From the NCBI GenBank assembly GCA_035518715.1, contig DATIXJ010000027.1, positions 85,657-149,656 of the forward strand: a DNA stretch of 64,000 nt. Reading direction: 5' to 3'. Positions within the stretch are counted from its first letter, which is position 1. Each line of letters starts with the position of its first letter. Below, piece after piece: positions 7,290-41,141 of this stretch. The translations under genes were made by a program, and so were the position numbers. Source of the stretch: Bacteroidota bacterium (GTDB taxonomy: Bacteria > Bacteroidota > Ignavibacteria > UBA10030 > SZUA-254). The notes beneath the pieces are model-generated. The model searched no databases, was not told the DNA's origin, and saw nothing but the letters and a program-made list of their open reading frames with translations.

Positions 7290-7313
7290 GCCGGGTTCCT
7301 CAGAGATCGGGTA

Positions 7314-24782: not shown

Positions 24783-25173
24783 GTTCTTATCTCCGTTCTT
24801 TCCAATAATTCCAGCCCATCTTCAATTTCGCTTGAAGATTCGCAAATAATTCGTTACCATTCTTCATGTGTCGAATTTTTGGGGGATGAAATTCGACGCT
24901 CCCTTGACGACTGATGTCCGGTTGAATCAGTGCGGGGGTCTTTCGAAATGAATTCGACGGTGACCGCAGATCTGCGATTCCCGTCGGGTTACCACCACAG
25001 CGTTTATCATCTGGCTCTTTTTCTGTTTTGATTTTCATTGTTCCGGGGATTTTGCTTCAGTTTACCGACAACGATAATGAGGCTTCTTCCGTGGACAACT
25101 AAAAGTGTCAAACACGCCGTGTGGCGAAATGCCAAACGTTATGTGCAATTGCTTCGCGGTCAAGGGAAAAAAC

Positions 25174-26547
25174 ATGAAGTCAACACATGATACTCATTGG
25201 AAGCTTTGGATCATCTTACTCGTTGCTTTCCTCAATGGCTTATTGATGAATCGGGGTTCAGCCTGTCAGTGTTTTTCTGGCCCTCCATGCGAGGCCTACA
25301 AATACTCAGGTGTGATATTCATTGGTGAACTGCTGACTCAACAAAACTCTGGTTTCGGCGGGAGGATTGGAATTCTCTATTCTTTCAAGGTCACAAAATT
25401 GTACAAAGGGAAACGATCAGGTGAAATGAAGATCATGTCAGGGTTTGGCGGAGGGGATTGTGGCTATCCTTTTGAGAAAGGAATTCCTTATTTGATATAT
25501 GCTGATTCTATCCAGGGTGGTGTGCTATATACCGACATCTGTACTCGAACCCGTCAAGTAAGAGAAGCCGCTCTCGACCTATCGTACCTCGACAATTTGC
25601 CGAAATCAGCTGAGCAAACTCACGCCTGGGGTAGTATAATGCAGTTTGATAGTCTCACTGACTATTACATAAAATTCAAACCTTCACCCGGTGTCCAAAT
25701 CAGTACAGTTGCCAATGGTCAGCGTCTCAAAACCTTTTCCGATAGCCTCGGCAATTTCGAATTTGTCAATCTTCCCCCCGACAGTTACAAATTCAGTATC
25801 ACCGTACCCCACAATTTTATGCTGGAATACGGCGATGCTTATACTGAAGTTCGATTGGCACCATCGGGTTGTGCAATGATTCCCCTTACGCTTGTTCCCG
25901 ATGGCCGCATTAGTGGTCGGGTATTAGATAACGATGGCAAATCCGTGCCGCTGATCGACGTCGATCTGATGGCAGTAGATTCTGGCTATTCAAATAATTC
26001 GTACTTGCACACCATTGGTACCCGTGGATACACAAATCGGGATGGGAGATATACGATTCGGGGAGTTCCTCCAGGCAAATATTATGTTGGGGTGAACTTG
26101 ATACATGAGCCCAGGGGAAGACAGCCCTTCCCTCCAACATTCTATCCTGGAGTGACAGACAGATCGCAAGCACGAAAGATTGAAATGAAACTTGGCGATG
26201 CAAGAGATTCCACTGACATTCTCATGCAACAACAATATGCGGTAAAAAAAATCGAAGGAATCCTCAAGTACTCCGATGGGAGCGCTGTCCGAGGTGGCTA
26301 TGTTACATTTGACGAAACAAGAACAAAGGTTCTGGCAGCAAAACAATATGCTGAGAGCGCCGTCGATTCCACTGGCCATTTCTCACTCCCCGCATTGAGA
26401 AACCAGAAAGGCTGGATCCACGCAACAATCAATCCTGATCCGGCATTAAAAAATTTCGTTGTAACGAATCCGGAACCAATCGAGATTACAGCGAGCGAAG
26501 GTACTCGGGTGTTTATTATCAAATTTGCCCTGAAACCAAATAGATAA
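25174..26547 (+). CDS. Secreted protein with an N-terminal TIMP/NTR-like domain followed by CarboxypepD_reg-like beta-sandwich domains
   Basis: The signal peptide ends ...NRGSA, and the predicted mature end is CQC. TIMP-like blocks are YSFKVTKLYKG and DCGYPFEKGIPYLIYADSIQGGVLYTDIC. Later blocks are GRISGRVLDNDGKSVP and RDGRYTIRGVPPGKYYV. I prefer the ATG start at 25174; the track ORF starts at 25105. Confidence 0.7.
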   Translation: MKSTHDTHWKLWIILLVAFLNGLLMNRGSACQCFSGPPCEAYKYSGVIFIGELLTQQNSGFGGRIGILYSFKVTKLYKGKRSGEMKIMSGFGGGDCGYPFEKGIPYLIYADSIQGGVLYTDICTRTRQVREAALDLSYLDNLPKSAEQTHAWGSIMQFDSLTDYYIKFKPSPGVQISTVANGQRLKTFSDSLGNFEFVNLPPDSYKFSITVPHNFMLEYGDAYTEVRLAPSGCAMIPLTLVPDGRISGRVLDNDGKSVPLIDVDLMAVDSGYSNNSYLHTIGTRGYTNRDGRYTIRGVPPGKYYVGVNLIHEPRGRQPFPPTFYPGVTDRSQARKIEMKLGDARDSTDILMQQQYAVKKIEGILKYSDGSAVRGGYVTFDETRTKVLAAKQYAESAVDSTGHFSLPALRNQKGWIHATINPDPALKNFVVTNPEPIEITASEGTRVFIIKFALKPNR

Positions 26548-26549
26548 TC

Positions 26550-26611
26550 GATCAACATCGCAAAGCAGCTGCGCACGTTATGCGCCATGAACGGCGGCAG
26601 CTGTGTTCTGC
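26550..26611 (+). other. attC-like imperfect palindrome (weak candidate)
   Basis: GATCAAC (26550-26556) ... GTTCTGC (26605-26611). The inner arms CAGCTGC/GCAGCTG pair. The centre is GCGCA-cgtta-TGCGC and contains ACGTTATGCG, which recurs at 29385-29394. The flanking 7-mers are non-canonical. Confidence 0.25.
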
Positions 26612-26644: not shown

Positions 26645-27253
26645 ATGTCAACTGACAATAGTAAAAACGAGGTGGAACATTTCAACCGGTGGTCCCGCAC
26701 ATATGACAAGTCATGGATACAACGGTTCGCACTCCCTGTCCACCAAGACATGCTCGATGTTGCTGGTAATCTAGTCGCGGCTCCGCAATCGATTATCGAT
26801 ATAGGATGCGGAACCGGACAGCTTCTAATCAAAGCTTCAGCACGTTGGCCTTCGGCGTACCTTGTCGGCGTGGATCCTGCGATAGGCATGGTTGAGGTTG
26901 CACGCAGCCAAACTCGAGGTGCCACAATCTGTATCGCGAGTGCCGACTCGCTGCCGGTTGCTGACTCCTCAGCCGACATCGTCTTCAGTAGTCTCTCGTT
27001 CCATCACTGGGCTGATCAAACGAAAGGTCTTCGTGAAATAGCTCGCGTGCTGCGTCCGGCCGGTTGCCTCTGTATTGCAGACATTACAATGCCTGACTGG
27101 ATTGCTAAAATAATCCGGCGCGTCAAGGTCAAAGCACCTGTGGAGATGGCTCGTCTTCTCACCGATGCTGGTTTGATAGTCAAATTGCAGAGGCGGAGTT
27201 CTACCAGATTTGTTCTGCTGACCGTCGGAGTTAAGAACTCGGGCAGGACGTGA
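26645..27253 (+). CDS. Class I SAM-dependent methyltransferase (Methyltransf_11-like)
   Basis: Motifs: IIDIGCGTGQL, ADIVFSSLSFHHW, LRPAGCLCIAD. GAGGA lies upstream of the ATG. Confidence 0.85.
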   Translation: MSTDNSKNEVEHFNRWSRTYDKSWIQRFALPVHQDMLDVAGNLVAAPQSIIDIGCGTGQLLIKASARWPSAYLVGVDPAIGMVEVARSQTRGATICIASADSLPVADSSADIVFSSLSFHHWADQTKGLREIARVLRPAGCLCIADITMPDWIAKIIRRVKVKAPVEMARLLTDAGLIVKLQRRSSTRFVLLTVGVKNSGRT

Positions 27254-27314
27254 CCAATCAACACACTACGTTGCGGTGTAAGTGTTGATGCTGCCGTGCA
27301 CGAGCGTATAACAG

Positions 27315-27439
27315 GCCTAACAACGGCGCTCCCTCATTTTATATGGCGATGGCAACCCAAAACGAAAGCCTAAAGGATATCGCTCCATGCCGCACTCATT
27401 TAAGAGAAGAGCGCGGAGTGCGGCACGGCGTCGTTGGGC
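27315..27439 (+). other. attC-like site (best candidate), 125 bp
   Basis: The 5' end GCCTAAC (27315-27321) fits RYYYAAC. The 3' end GTTGGGC (27433-27439) fits GTTRRRY. The two 7-mers pair (6 Watson-Crick pairs and one G-U). The inner arms pair imperfectly with bulges (ACGGCG/CGGCGT, CTCC/GGAG, CTC/GAG). The site lies 62 nt after the upstream stop and ends 11 nt before the next ORF. Confidence 0.45.
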
Positions 27440-27449
27440 GAAACGGTAG

Positions 27450-28076
27450 GTGGTGAACAACCCAATGCTGATCACACTCGAGATCCTGGCGGTGGTCATC
27501 GCACCCCTCATATTTCTATACCTCAAAGGAACCTGGCATTTACGTGCTTCCATCCCGTGTCTCGTCAGCATATCTATCCTGTGGTATCTGACCTACTCGC
27601 CGATACATGAGTTGAGCCATGCTGCCGCGACATATCTGGTAGGCGGCCAGGTCACCTACATGAAGCTCATTCCCCGGTTCTGGCTCGGCGAGTATGGACG
27701 CGCATGGATCACGCCGGCCGGAATTACGGAGGGCTGGCAGCAACTCATCATGACAGCTTCTCCGTACATCATGGATGTGGCGTGTCTTACGGCAGTCATA
27801 TTCGTTCTTCAACGAGGTTTCTCGAAGAAGGCCTTTGTCGTTGGTCTTGTCTTCATGCTTCTCTGTTTGAGGCCTGCATTTGATTTCATCTGCGAGACAA
27901 TCGCGTTTCTCTCCGGCGACAGAGGAGACTTCTTCCACATAGAGATTTTGACCGGAAGCTTTATGATCCGGCTGCTCTTGCTCCTATCGCTCGGGTTATC
28001 CCTGTTTGCTATCGTGAACATTTTGAGGCGCTTTGTCGGGTTTCCTGATGCTCCATTACGTACGGCGAGCACATGA
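27450..28076 (+). CDS. Membrane protein with an HExxH motif (DUF3267-like putative zincin)
   Basis: SPIHELSHAAATYLVGG lies between TM helices, and there are about 5 hydrophobic segments. The start is either GTG 27450 or ATG 27465. Confidence 0.6.
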   Translation: MVNNPMLITLEILAVVIAPLIFLYLKGTWHLRASIPCLVSISILWYLTYSPIHELSHAAATYLVGGQVTYMKLIPRFWLGEYGRAWITPAGITEGWQQLIMTASPYIMDVACLTAVIFVLQRGFSKKAFVVGLVFMLLCLRPAFDFICETIAFLSGDRGDFFHIEILTGSFMIRLLLLLSLGLSLFAIVNILRRFVGFPDAPLRTAST

Positions 28077-28146
28077 ACAAGCAGATGCTGCACTCTGAGG
28101 CGAACGGTCGACTTGAAACTGTGTGCAACAAATTCACTCTGATGAA

Positions 28147-29217
28147 ATGAAAACACCAACGATTCTCCTGACCCTGACAATTCTCACGGCTCCCGGATGC
28201 AAAAATCCGGACGGGAACAAGGCCGCGCCTGGCGACAATGCGATTGTTCGTTCATCAGGTGAGTCAAGCGACATCGCTTTGCAAACAAGCAAACCCATTC
28301 GTTGTATACTGCAGGACAAAAGAGGAAACTACTGGTTCGGCACTGACGGCGATGGAGTGTGTCGTTACGATGGAAAATCCCTTACTTGTCTTACGGAGAA
28401 AGACGGTTTGTGTAATAATCAGGTGCGGACAATTCAAGAAGATAATCTGGGAAATCTCTGGTTCGGCACCGGTGACGGTATTTGCCGCTATGATGGAAAC
28501 ACCTTCACGAAGTTTATGGAGAACGAAAGCCCGGGTAAGGTCTGGAAGGATGAACCCGGCGAACTCTGGTTCGGCTCCCGGGACGGGGCTTGCCGCTACG
28601 ATGGCAGATCTCTCACCTGCTTTTCGCTCCCTGAGTCCGACAAGAAGTTTCCTCCTGCCAATTCCTCAACTCCCTATTCGGTCTATAGTGTATTGGAGGA
28701 CAAAAGCGGAAATCTCTGGCTGGGCACAGAGCAGAGAGGAGTGTGCCGTTACAACGGGAACCGGTTTACGTACTTCACGGAGAAGGGTTTGAGGACAGCC
28801 GCAGTTCGCTGCATCTTCCAGGACAAACATGGAAACCTCTGGTTCGGCAATAATGGCGGCGGAGTCTACCGCTATGATGGAACAACTGTATCCAATTTTA
28901 CCGAAGAACGAGGTTTGAGCAATCCGGACTTTGTAAAATCTCTCATCAGCAAACCGGGAACTCTTGCCCGTGTGTGGACAATCGCCGAAGACAAAGACGG
29001 AAATCTCTGGTTTGGTACCATCGATGCGGGCGCCTGGCGGTTTGATGGGAAGTCCCTGACGAATTTCACAACAAAGGACGGACTTGGGAGCGACGCCGTC
29101 TGGACAATCTATCGGGACAGGGCCGGAACCCTCTGGTTCGGTACGGACGGACGGGGTATCTACACGTTCGACGGGGGATCATTTCATCGTTTTGCAGGGA
29201 AAGGAAATGAGCGGTAA
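28147..29217 (+). CDS. Lipoprotein with two-component-regulator-propeller (Reg_prop) repeats
   Basis: MKTPTILLTLTILTAPGC is lipobox-like. There are at least 7 repeats of the type D..GN(L/Y)WFGT..G(V/I)CRYDG..(F/L)T.F. Confidence 0.8.
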   Translation: MKTPTILLTLTILTAPGCKNPDGNKAAPGDNAIVRSSGESSDIALQTSKPIRCILQDKRGNYWFGTDGDGVCRYDGKSLTCLTEKDGLCNNQVRTIQEDNLGNLWFGTGDGICRYDGNTFTKFMENESPGKVWKDEPGELWFGSRDGACRYDGRSLTCFSLPESDKKFPPANSSTPYSVYSVLEDKSGNLWLGTEQRGVCRYNGNRFTYFTEKGLRTAAVRCIFQDKHGNLWFGNNGGGVYRYDGTTVSNFTEERGLSNPDFVKSLISKPGTLARVWTIAEDKDGNLWFGTIDAGAWRFDGKSLTNFTTKDGLGSDAVWTIYRDRAGTLWFGTDGRGIYTFDGGSFHRFAGKGNER

Positions 29218-29248
29218 TGAACAGTAACGGACACTGAGCTGCACGAAC

Positions 29249-29393
29249 GCATAACACATCACTCACTCATCTGGTGAGGTGTGGTGGGGTCAAATGTTTG
29301 GCTCGATGGTTGGTGTTCGTTCATCGGCTCGCACACCCACGCCAGAAAAGCAAAAGCATAGTGCTCGCTGGGCGTGGTTGCGAAACGTTATGC
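29249..29393 (+). other. attC-like site candidate, 145 bp
   Basis: ACGCATAAC (29247-29255) is perfectly complementary to GTTATGCGT (29387-29395). The interior holds several imperfect hairpins (CTCAC/GTGAG and CCACGCC/GGCGTGG). The site ends 32 nt before the next start codon. Confidence 0.35.
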
Positions 29394-29425
29394 GTCAGGC
29401 CCCGGCGCTGAAATGAAAGCAGAAG

Positions 29426-30342
29426 ATGTTAACAGACGACAAAGTTAGAACAGCCGCCTTTGATTGGCTTGCGAAGCAAGCTGCTCTTCACGGTGAAGTT
29501 CTGCCAAGGAATCTCCTCCAGCACGGGTTCATCATCGAAGGAAAGCGGATTCCTTTGCTTTCTCCCCAAGGCATTTTCAGACCCGCGGTACTCCATGATG
29601 CCCCTCTTTCGATCGTAACTTCTCCCGACAGCCCGTACAATGATAGCTTCAGTCTGGATGGCCTGCTGCAGTACAAGTATCGCGGTACCAATCCTCGTCA
29701 TCGAGACAACGTGGGATTGCGGGAAGCGATGAGGAATCACATTCCACTTATTTATTTCCATGGCATTGCCCCCGAAAATATATTGCGGCCTGGCCGGTTT
29801 ATATCTTCAGTGATGATCCGACGAATCTCACATTCACAGTGATCGTGGACGATGTCGCAACCGTTACGATGCGAAGAGGAGAACAGCCCATTCAGGAGGT
29901 TCCCGATGAAGAAGCGCTCTTCAGCCGCAGAGCATACGTGACGAAACAAGTCCGACAACGACTTCACCAGCAAGCTTTTCGTGCCCGGGTTCTCGCCGCT
30001 TACCGAGAGCAATGCGCGTGTTGCAGATTACGCCACGAACAGCTGCTGGACGCTGCACACATCATTCCCGATTCAGAACCTGAAGGTGAACCTGTTGTCA
30101 GTAATGGCATCGCACTCTGCAAGCTACATCATGCAGCGTTTGATGAATTATTTATCGGCATTACACCCGACCACATTATACAAGTGAGACGCGACATCCT
30201 TGAGGAATTCGACGGCCCGATGTTATTGCATGGCCTTCAGGGATTGAATGGAAACAAAATTGTCCTGCCGCGATCACTCAGGCACCAGCCGAATCGCGAA
30301 TTTCTAGAGAGACGATTTATTCTTTTTAGGAATGCTGGATGA
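29426..30342 (+). pseudogene. HNH endonuclease (HNH_2 / putative restriction-endonuclease-like) disrupted by a 1-nt frameshift
   Basis: Track ORFs 29426-29842 and 29839-30342 are two halves of one protein. The frame changes within CCCCCGAAAA (29769-29778). Read through, the sequence is ...FHGIAPE(K)YIAAWPVYIFSDDPTNLTFTVIVDD.... The HNH core is CACCRL...LDAAHIIP...NGIALCKLHHAAFD. Confidence 0.75.
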
Positions 30343-30481
30343 TCCGCATTTTCGCACGGCATGGTGAAAACGTCTTACGCGCAAAGCACCGATAGTCCGC
30401 GGCCTCAAACAAGGGTGGGCGAGACCGCGTGCTTACGCGAACGCTAGACGCTATAACATCAGGACTTAATGAGAGACTCAT

Positions 30482-31036
30482 ATGCCTCCACACTACGTCA
30501 AAACAATTCGTGAAGAGATCCTGTATGAATATGCGAAGCTGATCTCTCGGTCCGCATACGGAACTCTCCAGCGTGGTTTCATCACCGAACGGTTTCAGAA
30601 GCTCCGCGATGGTGAAATCACCATATCTGACACAATCCGAGAGTGGGAGCGCGAGCAACAACTCCCGAAGGAATGCGTCTTCTGTGGTACGACCGACGAC
30701 CTTACAACCGACCACCTCATCCCCATAAACCGGGGAGGCGACGATTCCGCGGACAATCTCGTGCTCTCGTGCCGGACCTGCAATTCTTCACGGGGAGACA
30801 AAGGTGTCTTTGAGTGGCTTGGACTGGAAAAGAAAGACCGTCTGCATCGACTGGTCGCAGGCAAATACCTGAAACAGCTCCTGACCGTTCACGAGAGAGG
30901 CCACACCCTGGAAATAAGCAAGAGTCAAGTCGGACAACTCTGTGCATCGTGCCCGTTACCAAAGGTGTGTGAACAGTGGGGAAAGAATGAGGAGCTCACT
31001 TGCTTCTGTCTGGAAAGTGTATTGCCATACAAATGA
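30482..31036 (+). CDS. HNH endonuclease (HNH_5-like)
   Basis: CVFCGTTDDLTTDHLIPINRGGDDSADNLVLSCRTCNSSRGDK. Confidence 0.8.
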   Translation: MPPHYVKTIREEILYEYAKLISRSAYGTLQRGFITERFQKLRDGEITISDTIREWEREQQLPKECVFCGTTDDLTTDHLIPINRGGDDSADNLVLSCRTCNSSRGDKGVFEWLGLEKKDRLHRLVAGKYLKQLLTVHERGHTLEISKSQVGQLCASCPLPKVCEQWGKNEELTCFCLESVLPYK

Positions 31037-31155
31037 TTCACTTGCCACTGCTGCGACCTTCAGCGGAAAATACGATGCTTGGTCACGTACGTCTTTCCAA
31101 ACAAAATGGTGCTGTGTTGTCGGGCGAGACTTTGTACTCTATTGGGCTTCAACCA

Positions 31156-31272
31156 AGTATCCGGAGCCGTGCAATCGCCAGGGGAGTGCGGCTGGAAATC
31201 AACCGACGCTTTGCGATTGCGCAAGTTCTTTGATTACTTTCTTCCAAAGAAAGTAACAAAAGAGATTTCCAG
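31156..31272. repeat. Structured intergenic repeat, copy 1 (117 bp)
   Basis: It shares GTGCAATCGC, TGGAAATCAA, GCTTTGCGATT, GCGATTGC(G/A)CAAGTTCTTTG(A/G)TTACTTTCTTCCAAAGAAAGTAACAA and GATTTCCAG with 34804-35026. Inverted repeats are 31171-31178/31213-31220, 31192-31200/31264-31272, and a 10-bp hairpin at 31234-31256. Confidence 0.8.
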
Positions 31273-31296
31273 TTCTGAATTTTAAGAAAGTCTTTC

Positions 31297-31806
31297 ATGG
31301 ACATCCTCGGCAAAAGTCCCATCCCAATTCCAATGTTTATTGTCGGAAAGCTGGCGTTTCTCGCCTGCGCACTCTTCATTTTCATCAGATCCATTGGCGT
31401 TGACTCAATGCTCTTCGAATCCGCCTTTACCCGACAAATGGGCCTCATATTCTATGTCGGCGGATTAATTATTGTCATCGCCGCTCTTCTCCAACTCGGT
31501 CAATCTGCCGCAGTAGGAATTCCCGCAGGAAATACTGAACTTAAGACACACGGTCTCTACAGTCTTTCCAGGAATCCGGTCTACACCGGCGCGTTCATCA
31601 TGTGCATCGGATCATGCCTGTACTCTCTGCATCTCATCAATCTCTTCCTTCTTGTTCTTACCGTCGCCATTCATCACTGGATCATCATCCGGGAAGAGGT
31701 ATTCCTTGAGCAGCGGTTTGGGCGGAAATGGAACGATTACAATCAACGGGTTCCGAGATACATTGGCAGAATCAAACGAGGTGAGATTCGCGGCAAGAGC
31801 GAATAG
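31297..31806 (+). CDS. Isoprenylcysteine carboxyl / phospholipid methyltransferase family membrane protein
   Basis: LKTHGLYSLSRNPVYTGAFIMCIG and EEVFLEQRFGRKWNDY, with 4 TM segments. Confidence 0.8.
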   Translation: MDILGKSPIPIPMFIVGKLAFLACALFIFIRSIGVDSMLFESAFTRQMGLIFYVGGLIIVIAALLQLGQSAAVGIPAGNTELKTHGLYSLSRNPVYTGAFIMCIGSCLYSLHLINLFLLVLTVAIHHWIIIREEVFLEQRFGRKWNDYNQRVPRYIGRIKRGEIRGKSE

Positions 31807-31856
31807 CACGCAGCAACACGACGATGGATAATATTTTTTCAATCTCGAGCGTTCCT

Positions 31857-32576
31857 ATGATCCGAAGCTTTGTGCTTCTCATTTTCGCGTTGGCTCAATT
31901 CAACTTCTCTGCCGATTCACAGAGTAGTGCGCAAGCGCCACCCAATGGATTTCGCAGTGCCGGTGAAATCAGACTTACATTCAGTTCAAATGGGGTGGAT
32001 GGCAAACTCATCTTGCTTATCGACAACCGGCTGCCGGAGGAAATACCTGCCTGGGACTATCTCGATTCCGTCGGAGATCCTTCTGCATTGCAAAATGCTG
32101 CCTTGATCATCCTCGGTCAAGATGGCGATACCATCGTCACTGAACTTCTGGAGAGGCCATCTGCTTGGTTTCAGATAACAGACTCAATACCGGATTCTCC
32201 CACCTGGATGGCAATAACAGTGGATTATTCCTCTGGTATGGGTTCATACAACGGTCCCATTACTTCCTTTCTAGGCGTTAAGAATGCGAAAATAGAGTGG
32301 CTGGAAGTTTCCAATGTTGCCACCAATCAGCGAGAAAGGATCTTCCTCATGCGATCGCTCAAAACGCAGTGGAGGTTAGTACAGAACGATCCTCCCTACC
32401 TGCTTCAAGCGGCTTGTCGGCCGGATTTTGACAAGGGTCTAGATTCGTTTAAGTTGATTTTTACACGCGATTCGTTGAAAGGGTCAGGGTGGTTTAAATC
32501 TGAGCGAGTTGAAAGCGGTTTTTTGGAATTTGAAGATGAGAGTGATTTTCCACCCGAATCAAAATTTCCAGAATAG
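31857..32576 (+). CDS. Hypothetical secreted protein
   Basis: Signal-like MIRSFVLLIFALAQFNFSA. No recognised motif. The track ORF starts at 31824. Confidence 0.5.
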   Translation: MIRSFVLLIFALAQFNFSADSQSSAQAPPNGFRSAGEIRLTFSSNGVDGKLILLIDNRLPEEIPAWDYLDSVGDPSALQNAALIILGQDGDTIVTELLERPSAWFQITDSIPDSPTWMAITVDYSSGMGSYNGPITSFLGVKNAKIEWLEVSNVATNQRERIFLMRSLKTQWRLVQNDPPYLLQAACRPDFDKGLDSFKLIFTRDSLKGSGWFKSERVESGFLEFEDESDFPPESKFPE

Positions 32577-32623
32577 TTCGCCTGAGCGATGTGGTGCGAC
32601 TGGGGACCATGGCGTGAAGGAGA

Positions 32624-33067
32624 ATGACAATGAATGAAGTAATGTCAGCTTGCGGCATTATCTGCTCGAATTGTGCCGCATACGTTGCCGCCTCCAAAGG
32701 GCTTGATGACCGGAAGGAGGCCGCTGAGGCATGGAGCAGAATCTACGGATTTCAAACGGCTCCGGAGAAAATGTCATGCGGCGGGTGCCTCGGTTCCGAC
32801 GACAAGATCTTTCACACGAGTATCAAATGCTCTGCCCGTCGCTGCTGCCTGACCAAAGGCCTCAAGAGCTGTGCGGAGTGTCCGGAAGAATCGTGTGAAC
32901 TCCTGGCGAGAGCGCAGTCGATTTGGGATCCTGTTCCTGAAATTTGTGCGAAGTTGTCTCCGTCCGACTTTGAAAAATACGCCCAACCCTATTGCGGTGT
33001 CCGGGAGCGATTTGAGGCGGCACGGCGGGCGTTCAGATCGCGTAACAAACAAAGTGATTGCCACTAG
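32624..33067 (+). CDS. DUF3795-like Cys-rich protein
   Basis: Motifs: CGIICSNCAAY, MSCGGCLG, CSARRCCLTKGLKSCAECPEESC. Confidence 0.7.
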   Translation: MTMNEVMSACGIICSNCAAYVAASKGLDDRKEAAEAWSRIYGFQTAPEKMSCGGCLGSDDKIFHTSIKCSARRCCLTKGLKSCAECPEESCELLARAQSIWDPVPEICAKLSPSDFEKYAQPYCGVRERFEAARRAFRSRNKQSDCH

Positions 33068-33185
33068 GGCAAGTGAGAAACCAATGCCAGAGATGAAATC
33101 TACCTTCCTTGATTTCGTTCGACAAGTCGCAAATAGCGGCATCGATGAACTGTCTCGCTTGCACGAAGTGGCATTTGCGTTGCCC
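33067..33185 (+). other. attC-like imperfect palindrome (weak candidate), 119 bp
   Basis: GGGCAAG (33067-33073) ... GTTGCCC (33179-33185), with GGGCAA/TTGCCC pairing. The inner pair is AATGCCA/TGGCATT. The central hairpins are GAAATC/GATTTC and CGAC/GTCG. Caveat: a 50-codon ORF (33084-33236) also covers this stretch. Confidence 0.25.
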
Positions 33186-33252
33186 CCGGGTCGAGATTTT
33201 TCTGGATCAATTGCGGATATCCTGAAAAGATACTAGATTCGATGGATGAGTT

Positions 33253-33858
33253 ATGGAACTCCTGAAGACATTCCTTTTCCTGATCGCCGTTATTGATCCG
33301 CTGGGAACGATTCCAATCTTCCTGGTAGCGACGAAGCCGTTCGACAGGCCGATGAAACGCAAAATTGCCATCCGGGCAACGATGTTCGCTGCTTTGATAC
33401 TCGTCTTCTTCATCGTTGCTGGACAACTCATCATGGAGGCGATGGAAATCTCCCTCTCTGCATTTCAGATATCCGGCGGAGCGATCTTGTTCCTCTTTTC
33501 GTTGACCATGGTTTTCGGGCACGGGGAAGCGCATGGCGAAACCCAGGCCGTTCCAAATCATGAACATGTCACGATTTTTCCCATTGCGATGCCTTCCATA
33601 GCTTCTCCCGGAGCCATCATGGCGGTTGTCCTTCTCACCGACAACTATACGTTCTCCATCGGGCAGCAATTTATTACAACACTCATTCTCTTCCTCGTTC
33701 TCATTCTGACTTGCGGTGTTCTACTGGCCGCGAGAAAAATTCAGGAAAAGGTCGGTGACACGGGAATTACCGTCATCAGCAAGATCATGGGTCTGATTCT
33801 CGCTTCGTTTGCCGTGCAGAACGTCCTGACAGGAATCAAGGCATACTTCAGGCTCTGA
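33253..33858 (+). CDS. MarC-family (UPF0056) integral membrane protein
   Basis: FLFLIAVIDPLGTIPIFL and IFPIAMPSIASPGAIMAVV. Confidence 0.9.
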   Translation: MELLKTFLFLIAVIDPLGTIPIFLVATKPFDRPMKRKIAIRATMFAALILVFFIVAGQLIMEAMEISLSAFQISGGAILFLFSLTMVFGHGEAHGETQAVPNHEHVTIFPIAMPSIASPGAIMAVVLLTDNYTFSIGQQFITTLILFLVLILTCGVLLAARKIQEKVGDTGITVISKIMGLILASFAVQNVLTGIKAYFRL

Positions 33859-33920
33859 TGCGGGTTTATCGGGGCGGGTACGTTGCCGTAAATTCTCAAC
33901 TCCTCACCGGAAAAAGTACA

Positions 33921-34346
33921 ATGAAACAATCAGCAAAAACCTCAGGCTATTCCGGGACACCCTTGGCAAAAAAGCTCGGCATCAAGAGCAATTTCAGGGT
34001 TCGACTCGTGAATCAGCCGGATCACTACTTCGATCTCTTTACCGATCTGCCGGAAGATCTCAAGGTTGTGACCGACAGGAAATCAAAAAAGAATCTGATT
34101 CACTATTTTACGACGAGTGCTTCACGGCTGGAATCGGACATCAAACAATTGCGGAATGAGATCGAAGAAGACGGGTCAATATGGATATCCTGGCCGAAGC
34201 TGAGCGCGAACCTCAAGACTGACCTCAATGAAAATATCGTACGCGACATCGCACTCAGAAATAAACTGGTGGACGTGAAAGTCTGCGCGGTCGATGAAAC
34301 CTGGTCGGCGCTGAAGCTCGTTATCCGTCTTAAAGATAGAAAATAA
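33921..34346 (+). CDS. DUF3052-like protein
   Basis: MKQSAKTSGYSGTPLAKKLGIKSNFRVRLVNQPDHY. I prefer the ATG start at 33921; the track ORF starts at 33858. Confidence 0.7.
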   Translation: MKQSAKTSGYSGTPLAKKLGIKSNFRVRLVNQPDHYFDLFTDLPEDLKVVTDRKSKKNLIHYFTTSASRLESDIKQLRNEIEEDGSIWISWPKLSANLKTDLNENIVRDIALRNKLVDVKVCAVDETWSALKLVIRLKDRK

Positions 34347-34397
34347 TATCACCCTCACATCAGAGGGGCATCGTTCATTTGAATAAGGAGTTCATTT

Positions 34398-34766
34398 ATG
34401 TCCTTCGGAAAGACAACGCCCATTCTGCGCATATTCGATGAAGCCAGAGCTAAGGAATTTTATATCGGTTTCCTCGGATTCGAGATCGATTGGGAACACC
34501 GCTTTGAACCCGGTACGCCGATCTACATGCAGATCTCGAAGGACGGATGCGTTCTCCATTTGTCGGAGCATCACGGCGACGGATGTCCGGGCGCAGTAAT
34601 GAGGATTCAGACCAATGAACTCGACAAGTTTCACGCCGAACTCACTGCCAAAAATTACAAATATTACCGCCCCGGCATACAGAAAATGGAATGGGGTACC
34701 CGGGACATGACGGTCCAGGACCCCTTCGGCAACAAGCTGACATTTACCGATGCAATCAGCACCTAA
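34398..34766 (+). CDS. Glyoxalase / bleomycin-resistance (VOC) superfamily protein
   Basis: Motifs: ILRIFDEARAKEFYIGFLGFEIDWEHRF, LHLSEHHGDG, MTVQDPFGNKLTF. AAGGAG lies upstream. Confidence 0.85.
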   Translation: MSFGKTTPILRIFDEARAKEFYIGFLGFEIDWEHRFEPGTPIYMQISKDGCVLHLSEHHGDGCPGAVMRIQTNELDKFHAELTAKNYKYYRPGIQKMEWGTRDMTVQDPFGNKLTFTDAIST

Positions 34767-34803
34767 ACATACACCTTTTACGCTCTTGAGATGGGGAGGA
34801 CTG

Positions 34804-35026
34804 AGTATTCCAGAATATGCGGGGCTGTGCAATCGCTAGCGTTGTGCGTTTGGAAATCAATCCCCGCTTTGCGATTCCGACGGAATAGCATACAGGTCGT
34901 GTTCGCTCATTGCTTGAGCGTCGGAATCGCGCTGAACCTAAGCCGGCCGCATCGAAGCCGTGTGTTGCGATTGCACAAGTTCTTTGGTTACTTTCTTCCA
35001 AAGAAAGTAACAACAAAGATTTCCAG
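34804..35026. repeat. Structured intergenic repeat, copy 2 (223 bp, with an extra internal module of about 96 bp)
   Basis: It has the same conserved blocks as copy 1. The outer inverted repeat is TGCAATCGC (34828-34836) / GCGATTGCA (34967-34975). The extra 12-bp perfect inverted repeat is GCGATTCCGACG (34871-34882) / CGTCGGAATCGC (34919-34930). The identical hairpin lies at 34988-35010. Confidence 0.8.
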
Positions 35027-35066
35027 GCGATTTGATTTTAACATCCAGACTTAGGAAAAGCTCACC

Positions 35067-35630
35067 ATGAAAACATATATCGCCCTCTTCAGGGCCATCA
35101 ATGTCGGCGGAAAGAACGCCCTGCCAATGAAAGAGCTTGCCGTTCTTCTGCAGAAACTTGGCTGCGTGGATGTCCGAACGTATATTCAGAGCGGCAACGT
35201 CGTTCTGACATCCGCGGAGAAGAGTCCGGAACGCCTTTCCGTCCAGATCAGCAAGAACGTGAAGGCAAACTTCGGATTTGATCCGACGCTGAAGCTATTG
35301 GAAGCGCGGGAATTAGAGACAGCAATCTCGAACAACCCATTCCCGGAAGCAGCAAAGACGCCCGAGTATTTGCACGCCGGATTTCTCCTCCAGAAGCCGG
35401 TCAAACCCGATCTGCAGAAACTCGAGTCGCTGAAGCAGAACGGAGAGCGATTTCAGCTGAAGGACAAAATATTTTATTTGCACGCACCGAAGGGAGTCGG
35501 CAAGTCGAAACTGGCCGCAAGCAGTGAGAAGCTGCTTGGCGTACCGATGACTGATCGCAACTGGCGGACGGTATGTAAGATCAGGGATATGGCGAGGGAG
35601 ATCAACGAACGCCGTGCGAGCAGTCGATGA
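35067..35630 (+). CDS. DUF1697 protein
   Basis: MKTYIALFRAINVGGKNALPMKELAVLLQKLGCVDVRTYIQSGNVVL. Confidence 0.85.
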   Translation: MKTYIALFRAINVGGKNALPMKELAVLLQKLGCVDVRTYIQSGNVVLTSAEKSPERLSVQISKNVKANFGFDPTLKLLEARELETAISNNPFPEAAKTPEYLHAGFLLQKPVKPDLQKLESLKQNGERFQLKDKIFYLHAPKGVGKSKLAASSEKLLGVPMTDRNWRTVCKIRDMAREINERRASSR

Positions 35631-36114
35631 ATGATATCGATATTGAAGATCCGAGGATGAAGACATATTCGTGCCTAACTGTTTAAACATACCAGCGGAC
35701 AGTAATGAATAGGGTCAGACTTGAACGGAACCGATGGACTGGGTGTTCATTTCTTTGTTCCGCCAAAGAAATGAAGGAAAGTCCCGCGGATCGGGATCCC
35801 GCTCTTTCAAAAGTATTTTTGATGCGGGAAAAGGCGGCCGAAATCGAAACGCGCGATTCCTTCCCCTTCCGCACAATGCAGCTGCAAATCCGCTTTAAGA
35901 AGCAGAAACAAAGTGGATTTGTACCGCTTCGGATGGAATCTGTCCACCGCACAGCGCTCTCGATTTCGGTTCCTAACGCACTCATCCAAGAGGTAGGCAT
36001 GAACGGGATTATGATGTATCGCATCGATTCAATTGTAACGCGTACTATGAGGCGTATTCCTGTCATCGTGGCCGAGTCTCAATCAATCATCAGTGAAATG
36101 CAAGGAGATCGAGA

Positions 36115-36540
36115 GTGGCAGAAAACAAAACCAAGCCAACAAAAAGCAGCGTCACATCATTCCTGAACAAGATCAAGGATAAGCAGCGGCGTGATGATTG
36201 TTACGCCATTGTCGGGATGATGCAGGAAGTTTCCCGCCTGGAGCCCGTCATGTGGGGAAGCGCGATTATCGGATTCGGAACATACCATTACGTCTACGAT
36301 AGCGGCCGGGAAGGAGATACGGTAATCATCGGCTTCTCCCCGAGGAAACAGAATATTGCGATCTACCTTATGGGCGGACTGAAGCCAATCGAGGGAGAGC
36401 TCGCGAAGCTCGGCAAGCACAAAAGAGGAGGAGGGTGCCTGTATATCGATTCTCTCGCCGACGTGAACCATAAGGTCCTCACGAAGATCTTTGCAAAGGC
36501 ATTCAAAGGTGGACAGAAAAAGATCTCACAGACGGCGTGA
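36115..36540 (+). CDS. DUF1801 (YdhG-like) protein
   Basis: VTSFLNKIKDKQRRDDCYAIVGMMQEVSRLEPVMWGSAIIGFGTYHY and KQNIAIYL. Confidence 0.85.
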   Translation: MAENKTKPTKSSVTSFLNKIKDKQRRDDCYAIVGMMQEVSRLEPVMWGSAIIGFGTYHYVYDSGREGDTVIIGFSPRKQNIAIYLMGGLKPIEGELAKLGKHKRGGGCLYIDSLADVNHKVLTKIFAKAFKGGQKKISQTA

Positions 36541-36546
36541 CCGGGA

Positions 36547-37017
36547 ATGAATCCCGCATTGCTCGAGTCGCTGCGAACAACATTTGTCCCGCTCGGGTTT
36601 CGGCCGGTCGAACCCGATCGAGCCGCAGCGCCGGAGCTGCAGAGGATTCTCAAGAGACAGACCTGGAACACCAACAGAGCAATCGGGGTATTCCAGATCG
36701 AGGCGGTTCCGCCAGATTTTCACAAAGTTGTGAAAAGGTGGGGATGGAGGATTGCAAAGAAGGTCGGCTTTTTCCCTTTCTTCTATAGCCTAGGAATACA
36801 GGTCATCGTCTCTTGCAAAGGTCCCGTTGACGCGAAGATGAACCTATCACATTGCGTCAACAAAGTTGATAACCAGCTGGCAATCGTTCAAAGTATTTTT
36901 CTGATTGATGAATCAAGCAGCAGGTTCATGCAGGCAAGAACATGGGGGCAATTGATTACCGGAAAATATCAGGATGACATTGTTCGTTGTCTCCGCCAAT
37001 TTTATAAGGAGAAATGA
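36547..37017 (+). CDS. Hypothetical protein (156 aa)
   Basis: The ORF fills the gap on the same strand. I recognised no motif. Confidence 0.5.
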   Translation: MNPALLESLRTTFVPLGFRPVEPDRAAAPELQRILKRQTWNTNRAIGVFQIEAVPPDFHKVVKRWGWRIAKKVGFFPFFYSLGIQVIVSCKGPVDAKMNLSHCVNKVDNQLAIVQSIFLIDESSSRFMQARTWGQLITGKYQDDIVRCLRQFYKEK

Positions 37018-37018
37018 C

Positions 37019-37270
37019 ATGTACATGCAGGTGATCGCTATACTCGTTTTCGGACTGACTGGTTATTTCCTCGGTTCGATCAAGAAGGACAAAATTTCAA
37101 ACCGGTTCAACATTATTCTTCTCATTCTGCTTCTCTTTGCTGCAAACTCTCACGGGCTGGGATTCTCCGGTGTCGGTGAATTTGTCATGAAGGATAACGA
37201 CATACTTCAGGGGTTGATCTTCGGGATACTGCTGCGGAGAATTTCGTTCAAGCCCTCACTGGCGATTTGA
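37019..37270 (+). CDS. Small membrane protein (83 aa)
   Basis: MYMQVIAILVFGLTGYFLG and IILLILLLFAA. AAGGAG (37006-37011) lies upstream of the ATG at 37019. Confidence 0.45.
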   Translation: MYMQVIAILVFGLTGYFLGSIKKDKISNRFNIILLILLLFAANSHGLGFSGVGEFVMKDNDILQGLIFGILLRRISFKPSLAI

Positions 37271-37490
37271 ATGGGTAATTTTCTCATTCATTGATGAGAG
37301 GCGGCGCTATTGATTGATTTTATGATTCAGGCAATTTTCCATTGCTCGGATGTGGCGTTAATAAATCATTTCGAGATTGAGTCATTACAATGTACTTACG
37401 GACGATGAATTAATCGTTAATTCTTCGGGCCCATACCCAATGACATAATGAGTCAATGACAAAATCTCCCCGCCATAGTAGTGCCATGCC

Positions 37491-39212
37491 GTGAGCTGGA
37501 TATTCTCGATATCGAAGGCTGATACTCGAGCCGGGGCTCATGTGCCCTGTCATGCCCCCCTACATGTATGTTCAGGAAAAAATTTTTATCTCGCAGTGGG
37601 AGGAAATCCCGATACTGCCTTCTGGCATAATGACGGCTCCCGCGGCTGGATTGTGGCTGGGGTCGGTTTCATCCGGAAGAATTCTGATTTCTCTCTCCTC
37701 ACCAAAGCAGATTGGCATCACCTTCTCGAGCAAGAGAAGTTCGATCCGGCTCTTCTCGATGGTCACTTTGTCGTCCTTCGCTGGAATGCAGGTCGACTCG
37801 AGTGCTTCACCGACCAATTAGGGATCAGGACTCTTTACTTCGGGAAATGTGCTCATGGAATTTGCATATCGACGCGATTGGATTGGGTCGCGCAATCGCT
37901 GAAGAGCCCGGGAATCGACTATCCCTCGCTCGGCGCAAAATGGCTCCTGCTGAATCAGTTTTCATTTGAATCCGGCATCTCCGGAATCGAGCGGCTGGGA
38001 CCGTGCGGGCACGCAGCTTTCAATGCCGGGGAAGTGGTTCGGTCAGTGCCTGGAAAACGATGGATCCCTTCCTTTGAGCCAACGACACCGGATATAGCAA
38101 TACGCACCCTGCAAGAATTCGTGCGATGTGCCCTGACCCAGCGCGACCAGCCATCGCTCGGATTATCCGGAGGTCTCGATTCTCGATTTCTTCTTGCCCT
38201 GTTCGCAAACCTTTCAAAGGATGGATTCTCGACGCACACTTTCGGCGATTGCTGTGATCCGGATCTTCAGGTAGCACACCGGATCTCCATGGCGCTTGGA
38301 ATTCCCCATCGACAGTTCAATGATCCGCTTCCGGATGTTCAAACGTGCATTTCCGGTCTCAAGTCATTCGCCGCTCAGGCGGCCCTGAGTGAGCCGGCAT
38401 CATCATATCTCAAACTCCGTTATTATTCTTCGCTTCGTGCCAACGGCAAGATAATGGTGGATGGCGGATTCGGTGAGATTGCCCGAAGGAAGTTCTTTAA
38501 TCGACTCCTGAGATTCAGGAAACGTGCGCTTTTGAGAAGAGACTCGGCGCGCCTTGCAAGCTATGTCAGTGCCCACCGTGCAGATATCTTCTCGCCTGAG
38601 ATCAATACGGCACTTCAACGCGGGGCTGTTCACGACGTGGAAAAAACACTCGACAAGTTGCCGGATACCGGGAAGATTGGATTCGAGAACCTCGCAGACC
38701 TGCTTGCGATATCCGCCCGACTCCCGAATTACGTCTGCCACGAGCAGGCGCGGATCGATGGTGAGGTTCTCAACTTTATGCCATTCTTACAACCCTCATA
38801 TTTGCGTGAAGTCTTTGGCCTTCCGCTCGAAGTGAGATCGCGTGGAGGGCTCCATCACCGGTTCATCCGAGAGTTCAATTCCGATCTCACGCATTTTCCA
38901 TTGTCGAAAGGCGGTGTCACATATCCCTACGGTTCCTCGACTGCCAGGGCGATGTTCACATCAATTCTCAAATCAGGTCTTGGGAAAAAGTACACCGACC
39001 CCAAACCCGATTTACTCCTTACACACCTCCGCGAATTCGTTCTCGATACGGTCCATTCAAAAGATGTGGTGGAGAATCCGGCGTACGACTACCAGAAGGT
39101 GTCAGATGCCGTGGCGCAGTATTATTCAGGGGATTCCAGCCGACGGCTTGCAGTGGATTGGTGGCTTACATTCGAGCTGTGGAGGCAATCGTTATCGCCG
39201 CCAGCCGGTTGA
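37491..39212 (+). CDS. Asparagine synthase (AsnB)-related protein. The PP-loop is present and the N-terminal amidotransferase nucleophile is apparently absent.
   Basis: GHFVVLRWNAGRLECFTDQLGIRTLYF is GATase-like. LGLSGGLDSRFLLAL is an SGGxDS PP-loop. The N-terminus reads (V/M)SWIF instead of MCG. Confidence 0.75.
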   Translation: MSWIFSISKADTRAGAHVPCHAPLHVCSGKNFYLAVGGNPDTAFWHNDGSRGWIVAGVGFIRKNSDFSLLTKADWHHLLEQEKFDPALLDGHFVVLRWNAGRLECFTDQLGIRTLYFGKCAHGICISTRLDWVAQSLKSPGIDYPSLGAKWLLLNQFSFESGISGIERLGPCGHAAFNAGEVVRSVPGKRWIPSFEPTTPDIAIRTLQEFVRCALTQRDQPSLGLSGGLDSRFLLALFANLSKDGFSTHTFGDCCDPDLQVAHRISMALGIPHRQFNDPLPDVQTCISGLKSFAAQAALSEPASSYLKLRYYSSLRANGKIMVDGGFGEIARRKFFNRLLRFRKRALLRRDSARLASYVSAHRADIFSPEINTALQRGAVHDVEKTLDKLPDTGKIGFENLADLLAISARLPNYVCHEQARIDGEVLNFMPFLQPSYLREVFGLPLEVRSRGGLHHRFIREFNSDLTHFPLSKGGVTYPYGSSTARAMFTSILKSGLGKKYTDPKPDLLLTHLREFVLDTVHSKDVVENPAYDYQKVSDAVAQYYSGDSSRRLAVDWWLTFELWRQSLSPPAG

Positions 39213-39265
39213 GCCCCTCGAAAGAGCATAGTCCAATATCCCGTCTATCCTCCTCCTGAAAACTC

Positions 39266-39294
39266 TTGCACGCTTCACCGCGATTTCTTACAAT
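39266..39294 (+). promoter_or_regulatory. Sigma70-like promoter candidate
   Basis: TTGCAC (39266-39271), a 17-nt spacer, then TACAAT (39289-39294). AAGGAG at 39317-39322 precedes the GTG at 39328. Confidence 0.35.
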
Positions 39295-39327
39295 ATCCTC
39301 TTGTCAATTGACTATAAGGAGATTCCT

Positions 39328-40314: not shown

Positions 40315-40328
40315 ATCCGGATCGTACC

Positions 40329-40757
40329 GTGAGACTCTGGAGTATACATCCCCGATATCTTGATGCGAAAGGACTCGTTGCTCTCTGGAGAGAAGGGCTC
40401 CTTGCGAAAAAGGTTCTTGAAGGCAGAACGAAGGGATACAGGCATCATCCGCAGCTCATGCGATTTCGTGAACAGATCTCTCCGGTTGCGGGTATCAACA
40501 GGTATCTTCATGAAGTCTGGATTGAATCTGCGGCAAGGGGATACTCATTCGACCGTGGTAAGTTGGCGCCCCGTCGAAAGGTGCCAAGGATTCCGGTGAC
40601 ATCCGGTCAGTTGAAGTTCGAGCTGGAACACCTCCGCGCCAAGCTTCGCCTGCGGGACACGAAACGCTTTCAGCTCCTCAGGAGTGTGAGGGAACCGCGG
40701 CCACATCCGCTTTTCAGAGTCCGAAGAGGGCGAATCGAACGATGGGAAAAGCAGTGA
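40329..40757 (+). CDS. Pyrimidine dimer DNA glycosylase (endonuclease V / DenV-like family)
   Basis: MRLWSIHPRYLDAKGLVALWREGLLAKKVL and HPQLMRF. Confidence 0.8.
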   Translation: MRLWSIHPRYLDAKGLVALWREGLLAKKVLEGRTKGYRHHPQLMRFREQISPVAGINRYLHEVWIESAARGYSFDRGKLAPRRKVPRIPVTSGQLKFELEHLRAKLRLRDTKRFQLLRSVREPRPHPLFRVRRGRIERWEKQ

Positions 40758-41107: not shown

Positions 41108-41141
41108 TGGGCGCGGGTAATTTCCCGGAGAGAAGAAACTA

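Follow-up and report, generated by a model that had tools for sequence, protein, structure and literature searches.

A bacterial TIMP-like domain with a predicted free N-terminal cysteine on a three-sandwich stalk, and its possible role as a zinc-peptidase inhibitor

Animal TIMPs (TIMP-1 to TIMP-4; MEROPS I35) possess an N-terminal inhibitory domain (PF00965; 3CKI, 1BR9 and 3MA2) of the NTR/OB fold that begins with a cysteine, and the chelation of zinc by these proteins reportedly requires that this residue, Cys1, be free. We have examined the gene for a bacterial protein of this kind, located at nucleotides 25174 to 26547 (+ strand, stop codon included) of a 64,000-nucleotide stretch from a Bacteroidota bacterium of the Ignavibacteria lineage (assembly GCA_035518715.1, contig DATIXJ010000027.1, positions 85,657 to 149,656). 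This entire stretch is called the window below. From its letters alone, an original prediction had proposed that the gene probably encodes a secreted metalloprotease-inhibitor-like module that begins with Cys-x-Cys directly after a signal peptide and that is fused to CarboxypepD_reg-like beta-sandwich domains. Based on the analyses described here, we are highly confident that the encoded protein is truly homologous to TIMPs and has a free Cys1, and we place the probability that it works as a zinc-peptidase inhibitor at roughly 0.55.

An earlier article (PMC3516229) mentions in one passage, with reference to Brew and Nagase 2010, that ‘various Eubacteria’ possess TIMPs, whereas papers on the evolution of TIMPs treat the family as metazoan and do not consider bacteria (PMC9409782, PMC4860685). 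Neither ‘bacterial TIMP’ nor ‘prokaryotic TIMP’ was found as a phrase in the literature searched, and no experimental study of bacterial TIMP relatives was found there. The word TIMP is also absent from the polymorphic-toxin and immunity literature searched, and the 2012 survey of polymorphic toxins likewise lacks ‘netrin’, ‘tissue inhibitor’ and ‘OB-fold’. The original prediction was right to call prokaryotic TIMP-like proteins barely characterised, yet such bacterial sequences had already been noted in print, as evident from PMC3516229. What is known, then, is the inhibitor fold and an already noted, uncharacterised bacterial family, to which the protein described here adds an architecture with a stalk and six cysteines.

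Two groups of bacterial proteins are useful for comparison. As a working analogy only, the I38 inhibitors (Pseudomonas AprI and Serratia/Erwinia Inh) and ecotin are exported inhibitors that protect the cell envelope, although they are unrelated in fold and sequence, as evident by the lack of any Pfam Inh match in the window protein. The gene for AprI adjoins the gene for its protease. In I38 inhibitors the N-terminal residues enter the cleft of the protease and the N-terminal amine nears the zinc, as in TIMPs (PMC8235301, discussion). Tim from Listeria monocytogenes is a TIMP-like lipoprotein that has the metzincin Mtz as its counterpart, interacts with a zinc metalloprotease, and is cleaved by its operon partner, and its locus is phage-derived (PMC8235301). 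Tim and the window protein are both bacterial and both have a predicted TIMP-like fold. However, Tim is a lipoprotein whose likeness to TIMPs comes by fold prediction only, whereas the window protein carries a predicted signal peptidase I cleavage site, exhibits homology to TIMPs at the level of sequence, and has no partner.

The TIMP-like domain of the window protein comprises the first 118 residues of the predicted mature protein (nucleotides 25264 to 25617, +) and contains the motifs F-K-V-T-K-L-Y-K-G, GGGDCGY and ICTRTR. A phmmer search of 1.84 billion cluster representatives (clusters at 50% identity) revealed that the domain belongs to a large family, with 4,232 clusters at E ≤ 1e-3 and 404 at E ≤ 1e-10. 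We aligned 50 family domains to generate a profile (A1), in which C1, C3, G49, C66, C93, R95 and T96 are invariant and the GGGD preceding C66 is nearly so. When this profile was compared to all PDB sequences, the seven best matches were all TIMPs (TIMP-2, E 6.6e-8; TIMP-3, E 2.6e-7; TIMP-1, E 6.4e-5), and composition bias is negligible in the match to TIMP-2. These alignments run from residue 1 to approximately residue 100 and keep C1, C3, the cysteine of CG[YV] and the last cysteine in register. For TIMP-2, C1, C3, C72 and C101 are paired with the family cysteines, and in the profile alignment the four invariant cysteines C1, C3, C66 and C93 correspond to TIMP Cys1, Cys3, Cys70 and Cys99.

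Further evidence comes from the Pfam TIMP model, which is matched by 27 of the 50 A1 members (best E 3.3e-7). The TIMP profile match expected from the original prediction is therefore significant at the level of the family, but the window sequence on its own falls below threshold (E 0.18; 12.0 bits against a cutoff of 23.1). As a control, 1,000 full shuffles and 1,000 cysteine-fixed shuffles were made of each of TIMP-2 and TIMP-3. The A1 profile scores TIMP-2 at 35.5 bits and TIMP-3 at 33.9 bits, whereas the shuffles average -0.4 to -0.9 bits and none exceeds 15.9 bits, and thus the resemblance goes beyond chance.

The predicted structure leads to the same family of proteins. An AlphaFold2 model of the domain built on A1 (predicted local distance difference test, pLDDT, 92.2; predicted template modeling score, pTM, 0.87) includes a helix at residues 8 through 14, a beta-barrel, and two C-terminal helices. 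The 19 best Foldseek matches in PDB are all TIMP-1, TIMP-2 or TIMP-3, with template modeling (TM) scores of 0.60-0.78 and a best E of 1.6e-6, and the closest among them is N-TIMP-3 in its complex with TACE (TM 0.78, root-mean-square deviation 2.8 Å). The model is an NTR/OB fold with TIMPs as its best structural matches, as had been anticipated. Next in order come PCOLCE (1UAP), agrin NtA (1JB3 and 1PXU), meteorin and complement C345C, followed by generic OB folds. These other NTR modules (PF01759) belong to the same fold superfamily (E 3.6e-4 to 2e-2, TM 0.5-0.6) but are weaker matches than the TIMPs, and the general PF01759 model is matched by only three of the 50 A1 members. Such modules are mostly C-terminal or internal and are not known to have a functional free Cys1. 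The only viral structural relatives are generic OB folds, all at E > 0.01, and no solved bacterial member of the TIMP-like family is present among the structural matches.

The other hallmark of a TIMP is the position of Cys1. The precursor of 457 amino acids starts with MKSTHDTHWKLWIILLVAFLNGLLMNRGSA and continues with CQCFSGPPCEAYKYSGVIFIGE. Its 30-residue signal peptide (25174 to 25263, +) consists of the n-region MKSTHDTHWK, the strongly hydrophobic h-region LWIILLVAFLNGLLM (best 10-residue Kyte-Doolittle mean 3.21), and the c-region NRGSA. Cleavage by signal peptidase I is predicted, by sequence rules, after Ala30, at a G-S-A-C site, which would yield a mature protein of 427 residues that begins CQCFSGPPC after ...LLMNRGSA. 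Codon 25264-25266 specifies the first cysteine past this predicted site. All of the strings quoted in the original prediction (...LLMNRGSA, CQCFSGPPCEAYKYSGVIFIGE, YSFKVTKLYKG and DCGYPFEKGIPYLIYADSIQGGVLYTDICTRT) are present in the translation, its placement of a cysteine as residue 1 agrees with the predicted cleavage, and the interval that it assigned to the domain (25264-25600) corresponds to mature residues 1-112 of the 118.

These N-terminal features are shared by the family. Cys-x-Cys at the start is present in 116 of the 118 relatives that align from query position 1, at a median residue of 25.5. In a survey of cleavage sites in 115 relatives, every protein has a hydrophobic h-region, 104 carry small residues at positions -3 and -1 (AxA in 67), position -2 is charged or bulky in 66, and only nine fit a relaxed lipobox. 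Because of these h-regions, the small residues at -3 and -1, and the scarcity of lipobox-like sites, signal peptidase I is predicted to cut members of the family immediately ahead of Cys1. Among 113 members, 80 (71%) have Ser at residue 2, 10 have Gln and nine have Thr, and residue 4 is variable; such variation at residues 2 and 4 fits what is expected of specificity positions.

The four invariant cysteines have aligned TIMP counterparts. Cys1-Gln2-Cys3 (25264-25272, +), the predicted free N-terminus, is the equivalent of TIMP Cys1-Thr/Ser2-Cys3. Cys66 in GGGDCGY (25459-25461, +) aligns with TIMP-2 Cys72 (TIMP-1 Cys70), and Cys93 in ICTRT (25540-25542, +) aligns with TIMP-2 Cys101 (TIMP-1 Cys99), such that homology predicts the disulfides Cys1-Cys66 and Cys3-Cys93. 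The third cysteine in the chain, Cys9 (25288-25290, +), resides in the helix formed by residues 8-14 and precedes the TIMP Cys13 position by three residues in the profile alignment. It is the fifth cysteine of the isolated domains, of which 98 of 115 carry five. There is no sixth cysteine inside the 118-residue domain, so the intradomain disulfide of TIMPs between Cys13 and Cys124 has no direct equivalent there. However, Cys9 co-occurs with the cysteine of a [DE]-R-G-C-[AG] motif approximately 110 residues past Cys93 in 56 of the 58 Cys9-bearing proteins that are long enough to judge, and the position of this cysteine (Cys203) is invariant in 25 full-length relatives. A Cys9-Cys203 disulfide would probably staple the head to the first sandwich of the stalk, as an analogue of TIMP Cys13-Cys124.

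Rhs genes next to members of a sister branch of the family offer the first contextual link between bacterial TIMP-like proteins and a domain that resembles zinc peptidases. In an Acidobacteria metagenome-assembled genome (MAG; L014:619-8920), an RHS-repeat protein of 1,748 amino acids carries the sequence DPTGM followed by a 202-residue C-terminal domain with the motif HEQVH. A gene for a TIMP-like protein of 154 amino acids begins 9 nucleotides past the Rhs gene, and its product, which is 41% identical to the window domain, has a signal peptide ending in ...VIFA that is followed by CTCE. A search with this C-terminal domain retrieved six Rhs proteins that are 44-97% identical in this region, and the contigs of five of these matches (P0158 to P0162) were examined. 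In four of the five, whose C-terminal domains are 50-80% identical, a TIMP-like gene comes next, either 2-30 nucleotides downstream or overlapping. These partner genes encode proteins with a signal peptide and a C[ST]C start, and score 90-112 bits on the A1 profile. Downstream of the most distant Rhs gene (44%, HEQSH) lies an unrelated gene. There are five pairs in all (L014, L068, L069, L071 and L072; C-terminal domain identity 50-100%), and their C-terminal domains of approximately 200 amino acids share an invariant H-E-x-x-H-R-D, a Glu 11 residues further on, and later a Tyr and a Gln. No match to this domain was found in Pfam, nor in PDB by profile.

Polymorphic toxins and their immunity genes are canonically arranged in this way, and the sister branch appears to consist of immunity proteins to Rhs-delivered HExxH toxins. 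In a maximum-likelihood tree, the five Rhs-linked proteins form a single clade (100/98) within a branch whose members carry four cysteines. They belong to the same domain family as the window protein and share with it a signal peptide followed by Cys-x-Cys (C[ST]C in their case) as well as the motifs GGGDCGY and ICxRT (ICQRT in their case). Unlike the window protein, they are mostly single-domain proteins of 150-170 amino acids that lack Cys9 and the stalk, and the window gene in turn has no toxin neighbour. The acidobacterial locus L014 further contains a second, orphan Rhs tip (6373-8352), which is accompanied by an exported partner of 187 amino acids.

We propose that the window protein would be exported by the Sec pathway and then cleaved by signal peptidase I just before Cys1, thereby presenting a 118-residue homologue of the TIMP N-terminal inhibitory domain on a stalk of three sandwiches. 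The disulfides Cys1-Cys66 and Cys3-Cys93 would fasten the N-terminal strand to the loops that carry GGGDCGY and ICxRT to form a wedge-shaped ridge like that of TIMPs. Conservation falls on this ridge, as evident by the invariance of C1, C3, C66, C93, R95 and T96. Inserted into the active-site cleft, the ridge would inhibit a zinc endopeptidase tightly and non-covalently at 1:1 stoichiometry, with Cys1 chelating the catalytic zinc via its alpha-amino and carbonyl groups and residue 2 (Gln in this protein) positioned at the S1′ pocket. The targets might be foreign zinc peptidases, or the cell's own enzymes in transit. Because no protease gene is linked to the window gene and no signal for outer-membrane export could be identified in the product of this diderm host, the protein would probably serve as a free-standing protective inhibitor, as do ecotin or AprI. 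By default in a diderm, its expected location is the periplasm or cell envelope.

Alternative explanations can be proposed for the likeness to TIMPs and for the leading cysteine. The likeness might be due to chance or convergence, in that a generic OB fold has come to carry a cysteine pattern that resembles that of TIMPs. This idea draws on an identity to TIMPs of only 15-22% and on the weak single-sequence matches of the window domain (E 0.18 to Pfam TIMP; E 0.65 by phmmer to N-TIMP-3 from PDB, residues 1-97 on 1-99), which by themselves are not evidence, even though both are perfectly co-linear (for Pfam TIMP, residues 1-97 on profile positions 3-111). It conflicts with the profile E of 6.6e-8, with the failure of cysteine-preserving shuffles to exceed 15.9 bits where TIMP-2 reaches 35.5, with a co-linear alignment of approximately 100 residues that includes the F-K-G and CG[YV] motifs, and with the far weaker similarity to generic OB folds such as SSB, RPA and LEF-3 (TM 0.35-0.45). 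We therefore consider this explanation largely refuted and give it almost no credence. If the protein were instead a lipoprotein, processed by signal peptidase II and acylated on Cys1, then the NTR domain would lie close to the membrane with a blocked N-terminus, and therefore the TIMP mechanism would be excluded. A cysteine does directly follow the signal peptide, the residues at -2 and -1 (Ser and Ala) fit a lipobox, and inhibitors of the Bacteroidota type such as potempins are lipoproteins (PMC9890683). However, position -3 is Gly (G-S-A-C) rather than Leu, Val or Ile, such that the lipobox [LVI][ASTVI][GAS]C is absent, and the family agrees poorly with lipidation given nine relaxed lipobox fits among 115 relatives and incompatible charged or bulky residues at -2 in 66. 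Cys1 is also invariant along with its inferred disulfide partner Cys66, and lipidation seems improbable overall. We hold it similarly improbable that Cys-x-Cys together with Cys9 binds a metal or acts as a thiol-disulfide centre. The clustering of cysteines near the N-terminus and their odd number in the isolated domain (five in 98 of 115) would fit such a centre, but the fifth cysteine co-occurs with a conserved sixth in 56 of 58 proteins to give even counts, the four invariant cysteines match the disulfide cysteines of TIMPs one-to-one, and disulfides are usual for exported proteins in the oxidising periplasm.

A true NTR homologue need not inhibit a protease, and it is conceivable, if rather doubtful, that the head serves in recognition of, or adhesion to, a protein or a glycan, with a CnaB-like stalk to display it. 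The modules of agrin (NtA), netrin, PCOLCE and complement (C345C) bind partners without inhibiting proteases, other NTR modules also match the model structurally, the stalk is closest to pilins and adhesin B-repeats, the family has no conserved protease partner, and its near-invariant GGGD and R-T are not features of TIMPs. What such a module does not explain is the free Cys1, which a non-inhibitory NTR domain does not need and which here always lies right after the signal peptide (CxC in 116 of 118). Furthermore, TIMPs outrank every other NTR module by sequence as well as by fold, the sister branch occupies the immunity position behind HExxH Rhs toxins, and no cell-anchoring signal was found for the window protein with Pfam or NCBIfam. 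Our preference for a zinc-peptidase inhibitor is nevertheless tempered by a number of observations that weigh against it, beginning with the sub-threshold Pfam score of the window sequence itself. Residue 2 in the window protein is Gln and not Ser or Thr as in TIMPs, animal TIMPs lack both GGGD and R-T, which could bind a different ligand, and adhesin-like stalk domains stand in place of the TIMP C-terminal domain. The Rhs C-terminal domain is predicted to be zincin-like and is read as a peptidase from its motif alone. The window protein also resides in the other main branch of the tree (split support 100/97), and because the branches differ, function can be transferred from the Rhs pairs to the window gene only at the level of the family.

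Genomic neighbourhoods add to these opposing points. We compared 66 loci from species-representative genomes, mostly of Acidobacteriota with some Ignavibacteriaceae, Bacteroidota and Chloroflexota and two Bacillaceae. All-against-all clustering of 557 open reading frames (ORFs) revealed no conserved neighbour, as the commonest family occurs in four of 60 loci. Among 179 ORFs within 3 kb, HExxH is present in seven, which Pfam assigns as one DUF4953 metzincin (the only metzincin), two M1 peptidases, one M50 peptidase, one MA-type TPR protein, one FGGY sugar kinase and one Rhs protein. Because there is no shared neighbour and HExxH ORFs are few, the TIMP-like family in general does not consist of operon-linked inhibitors. 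The closest homologue of the window protein, a 77% identical protein (P0003) from a Bacteroidota MAG, is surrounded by arsenic-resistance genes, an outer-membrane protein (OMP) and an M1 peptidase, without synteny to the window. Directly upstream of the window gene there is no toxin C-terminal domain, and only members of the sister branch occupy an immunity position.

The window protein retains many features of the N-terminal domain of animal TIMPs, including the NTR/OB fold (TM up to 0.78), Cys1-x-Cys3 directly past the signal peptide, the F/Y-K/R-G and C-G-Y motifs, and, across the bacterial family, a preference for Ser or Thr at residue 2. It differs from them in its low identity (15-22%), in having Gln2, GGGD before Cys66 and R-T after Cys93, and in the partner of the third disulfide, which is probably located in the next domain (Cys203) rather than at the domain end. 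It is also bacterial, and carries three CarboxypepD_reg/CnaB-like sandwiches where TIMPs carry their C-terminal domain. If bacterial proteins of this family inhibit via a free Cys1, then prokaryotes harbour a large and ancient store of an inhibitor design that is important in medicine, and new, stable, single-domain inhibitors of metalloproteases could be drawn from it. A concrete role would then be supplied by the Rhs pairs, either immunity or shielding in bacterial warfare, and an Rhs C-terminal domain with its TIMP-like partner constitutes a directly testable toxin-antidote system. To this set the window gene adds the stalked architecture with a probable inter-domain disulfide. A broader and distinctly speculative scenario is that the whole family (>4,000 clusters at 50% identity) is made up of true inhibitors of the TIMP type that chelate zinc and take part in interbacterial conflict, with the four-cysteine branch conferring immunity to Rhs-delivered zincin toxins and the stalked six-cysteine branch serving as a free-standing shield in the periplasm or envelope. 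In this scenario, the metazoan TIMP/NTR module would have descended from a prokaryotic pool instead of being an animal invention.

The remainder of the protein forms the stalk. A Pfam search with the whole protein finds solely CarboxypepD_reg and related sandwich families, which cover the C-terminal two thirds. CarboxypepD_reg itself (PF13620) matches in three stretches with E 1.3e-17 and 64.4 bits against a cutoff of 32.3, and an NCBIfam search with the whole protein gave no match. A full-length model (pLDDT 85.7, pTM 0.72) consists of the head and three sandwiches that resemble pilin, SdrD-B and TIE-type stalk repeats, in agreement with the fusion to CarboxypepD_reg-like sandwiches proposed originally. 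Sandwich 1 (mature residues 119-212; 25618 to 25899, +) is SdrD_B/CarboxypepD_reg-like and holds Cys203 (25870-25872). Sandwich 2 (residues 215-325; 25906 to 26238, +) yields the best CarboxypepD_reg match, at precursor residues 246-307. Sandwich 3 (residues about 327-427; 26242 to 26544, +) is delineated by the model and Pfam, and is also present in Acidobacteriota relatives. The C-terminal TIMP domain with its three additional disulfides is lacking, as the C-terminal 310 residues are accounted for by these CarboxypepD_reg/CnaB-like sandwiches. No C-terminal sorting domain of the type IX secretion system (T9SS; TIGR04183 or PF18962) was found in Pfam or NCBIfam at E ≤ 10, no transmembrane helix is apparent by eye in the C-terminal sequence, and no sortase motif or other sorting signal was detected. 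The 64-kb window contains no paralogues of the gene.

A single + strand ORF spans 25105 to 26547, within which the ATG at 25174 is the most plausible start codon. Other in-frame starts are a GTG at 25105 and an ATG at 25129, the latter of which is used by the ENA gene call (P0002) and lies 15 codons further 5′, whereas the relative P0004 begins at the position equivalent to 25174. The choice between 25129 and 25174 is immaterial to the signal peptide because the same core is kept either way. The 15 in-frame codons at 25129-25173 (+; MPNVMCNCFAVKGKN), located 5′ of the ATG at 25174, are conserved as protein in the 77% identical homologue P0003 (VMCNCFAVNGKV), and the true start codon may lie further 5′ or a conserved 5′ leader may be present. 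An imperfect 14-nucleotide inverted repeat (CAGCTGCGCACGTT / AACGGCGGCAGCTG) occurs at 26566-26603, 19 nucleotides past the stop codon and without a run of T nucleotides, and this hairpin may be terminator-like or recombination-site-like. A promoter and terminator scan was uninformative, and the sigma-70 consensus is not appropriate to the host phylum. No RNA runs with the gene were found, and its presence is confined to four wetland metagenome DNA runs; the source of the gene is a wetland bacterium.

Upstream of the gene lies a series of glycan-synthesis genes (YfhO, GT2, GT4, a methyltransferase, UDP-GlcNAc 2-epimerase and another GT2). The immediate neighbours are a GT2 glycosyltransferase gene on the upstream side and a methyltransferase gene on the downstream side, the latter followed by genes for a membrane protein with a HELSH motif and a Reg_prop propeller. 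G+C content is 0.49-0.51 around the gene compared to 0.52-0.56 in the glycan-gene region upstream (up to 24000). Lower G+C, unrelated neighbours and the lack of synteny with the closest homologue all place the gene in a variable region, which bears out the accessory location that had been suggested. The polytopic HELSH membrane protein (27450-28076, +), encoded two genes downstream, has a weak, sub-threshold match that is Peptidase_M50B-like (E 4.6e-4). It was rejected as a partner due to the weakness of this match and to the absence of such a neighbour in other loci. The M13 (neprilysin-type) peptidase mentioned in the original prediction as a candidate for inhibition assays is indeed encoded in the window, at 57613-59769 (+; Peptidase_M13_N E 9.8e-116, Peptidase_M13 E 1.9e-61). 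However, it is 31 kb away, it is a gluzincin, and nothing links M13 to the TIMP-like gene, so it was also dismissed as a target.

Further downstream, the interval 29426-42567 (+) holds co-directional, unrelated small genes with a G+C content slightly below that of the glycan-gene region and of the window's far end. These genes encode two HNH nucleases, PEMT-like, DUF3795, MarC, DUF1697, DUF1801 and Asn-synthase-like proteins, an alpha/beta hydrolase, a pyrimidine-dimer glycosylase (Pyr_excise) and a FlgD_ig protein. The interval looks like a variable cassette-like region and not an immunity island. An island of orphan immunity genes at 26645-42567 had been considered, but was discarded because Pfam reveals methyltransferases, a Reg_prop propeller and the families just listed there and no recognised immunity families.

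Some relatives exhibit peculiarities of their own, and all of those with annotated names are called ‘hypothetical’. The closest homologue, P0003 (L067:1767-9112 in the Bacteroidota MAG contig DATJGD010000099), is flanked by ArsC/ACR3 genes, an OMP barrel and a T9SS-tailed M1 peptidase. It ends early, at 401 amino acids, and a second contig has a separate 197-amino-acid ORF behind it, suggesting that this gene may be disrupted. Of the 60 loci, which together hold 63 TIMP-like ORFs, only three have more than one, including an acidobacterial locus (L051) in which two divergent TIMP-like genes encoding 449 and 374 amino acids are positioned 450 nucleotides apart.

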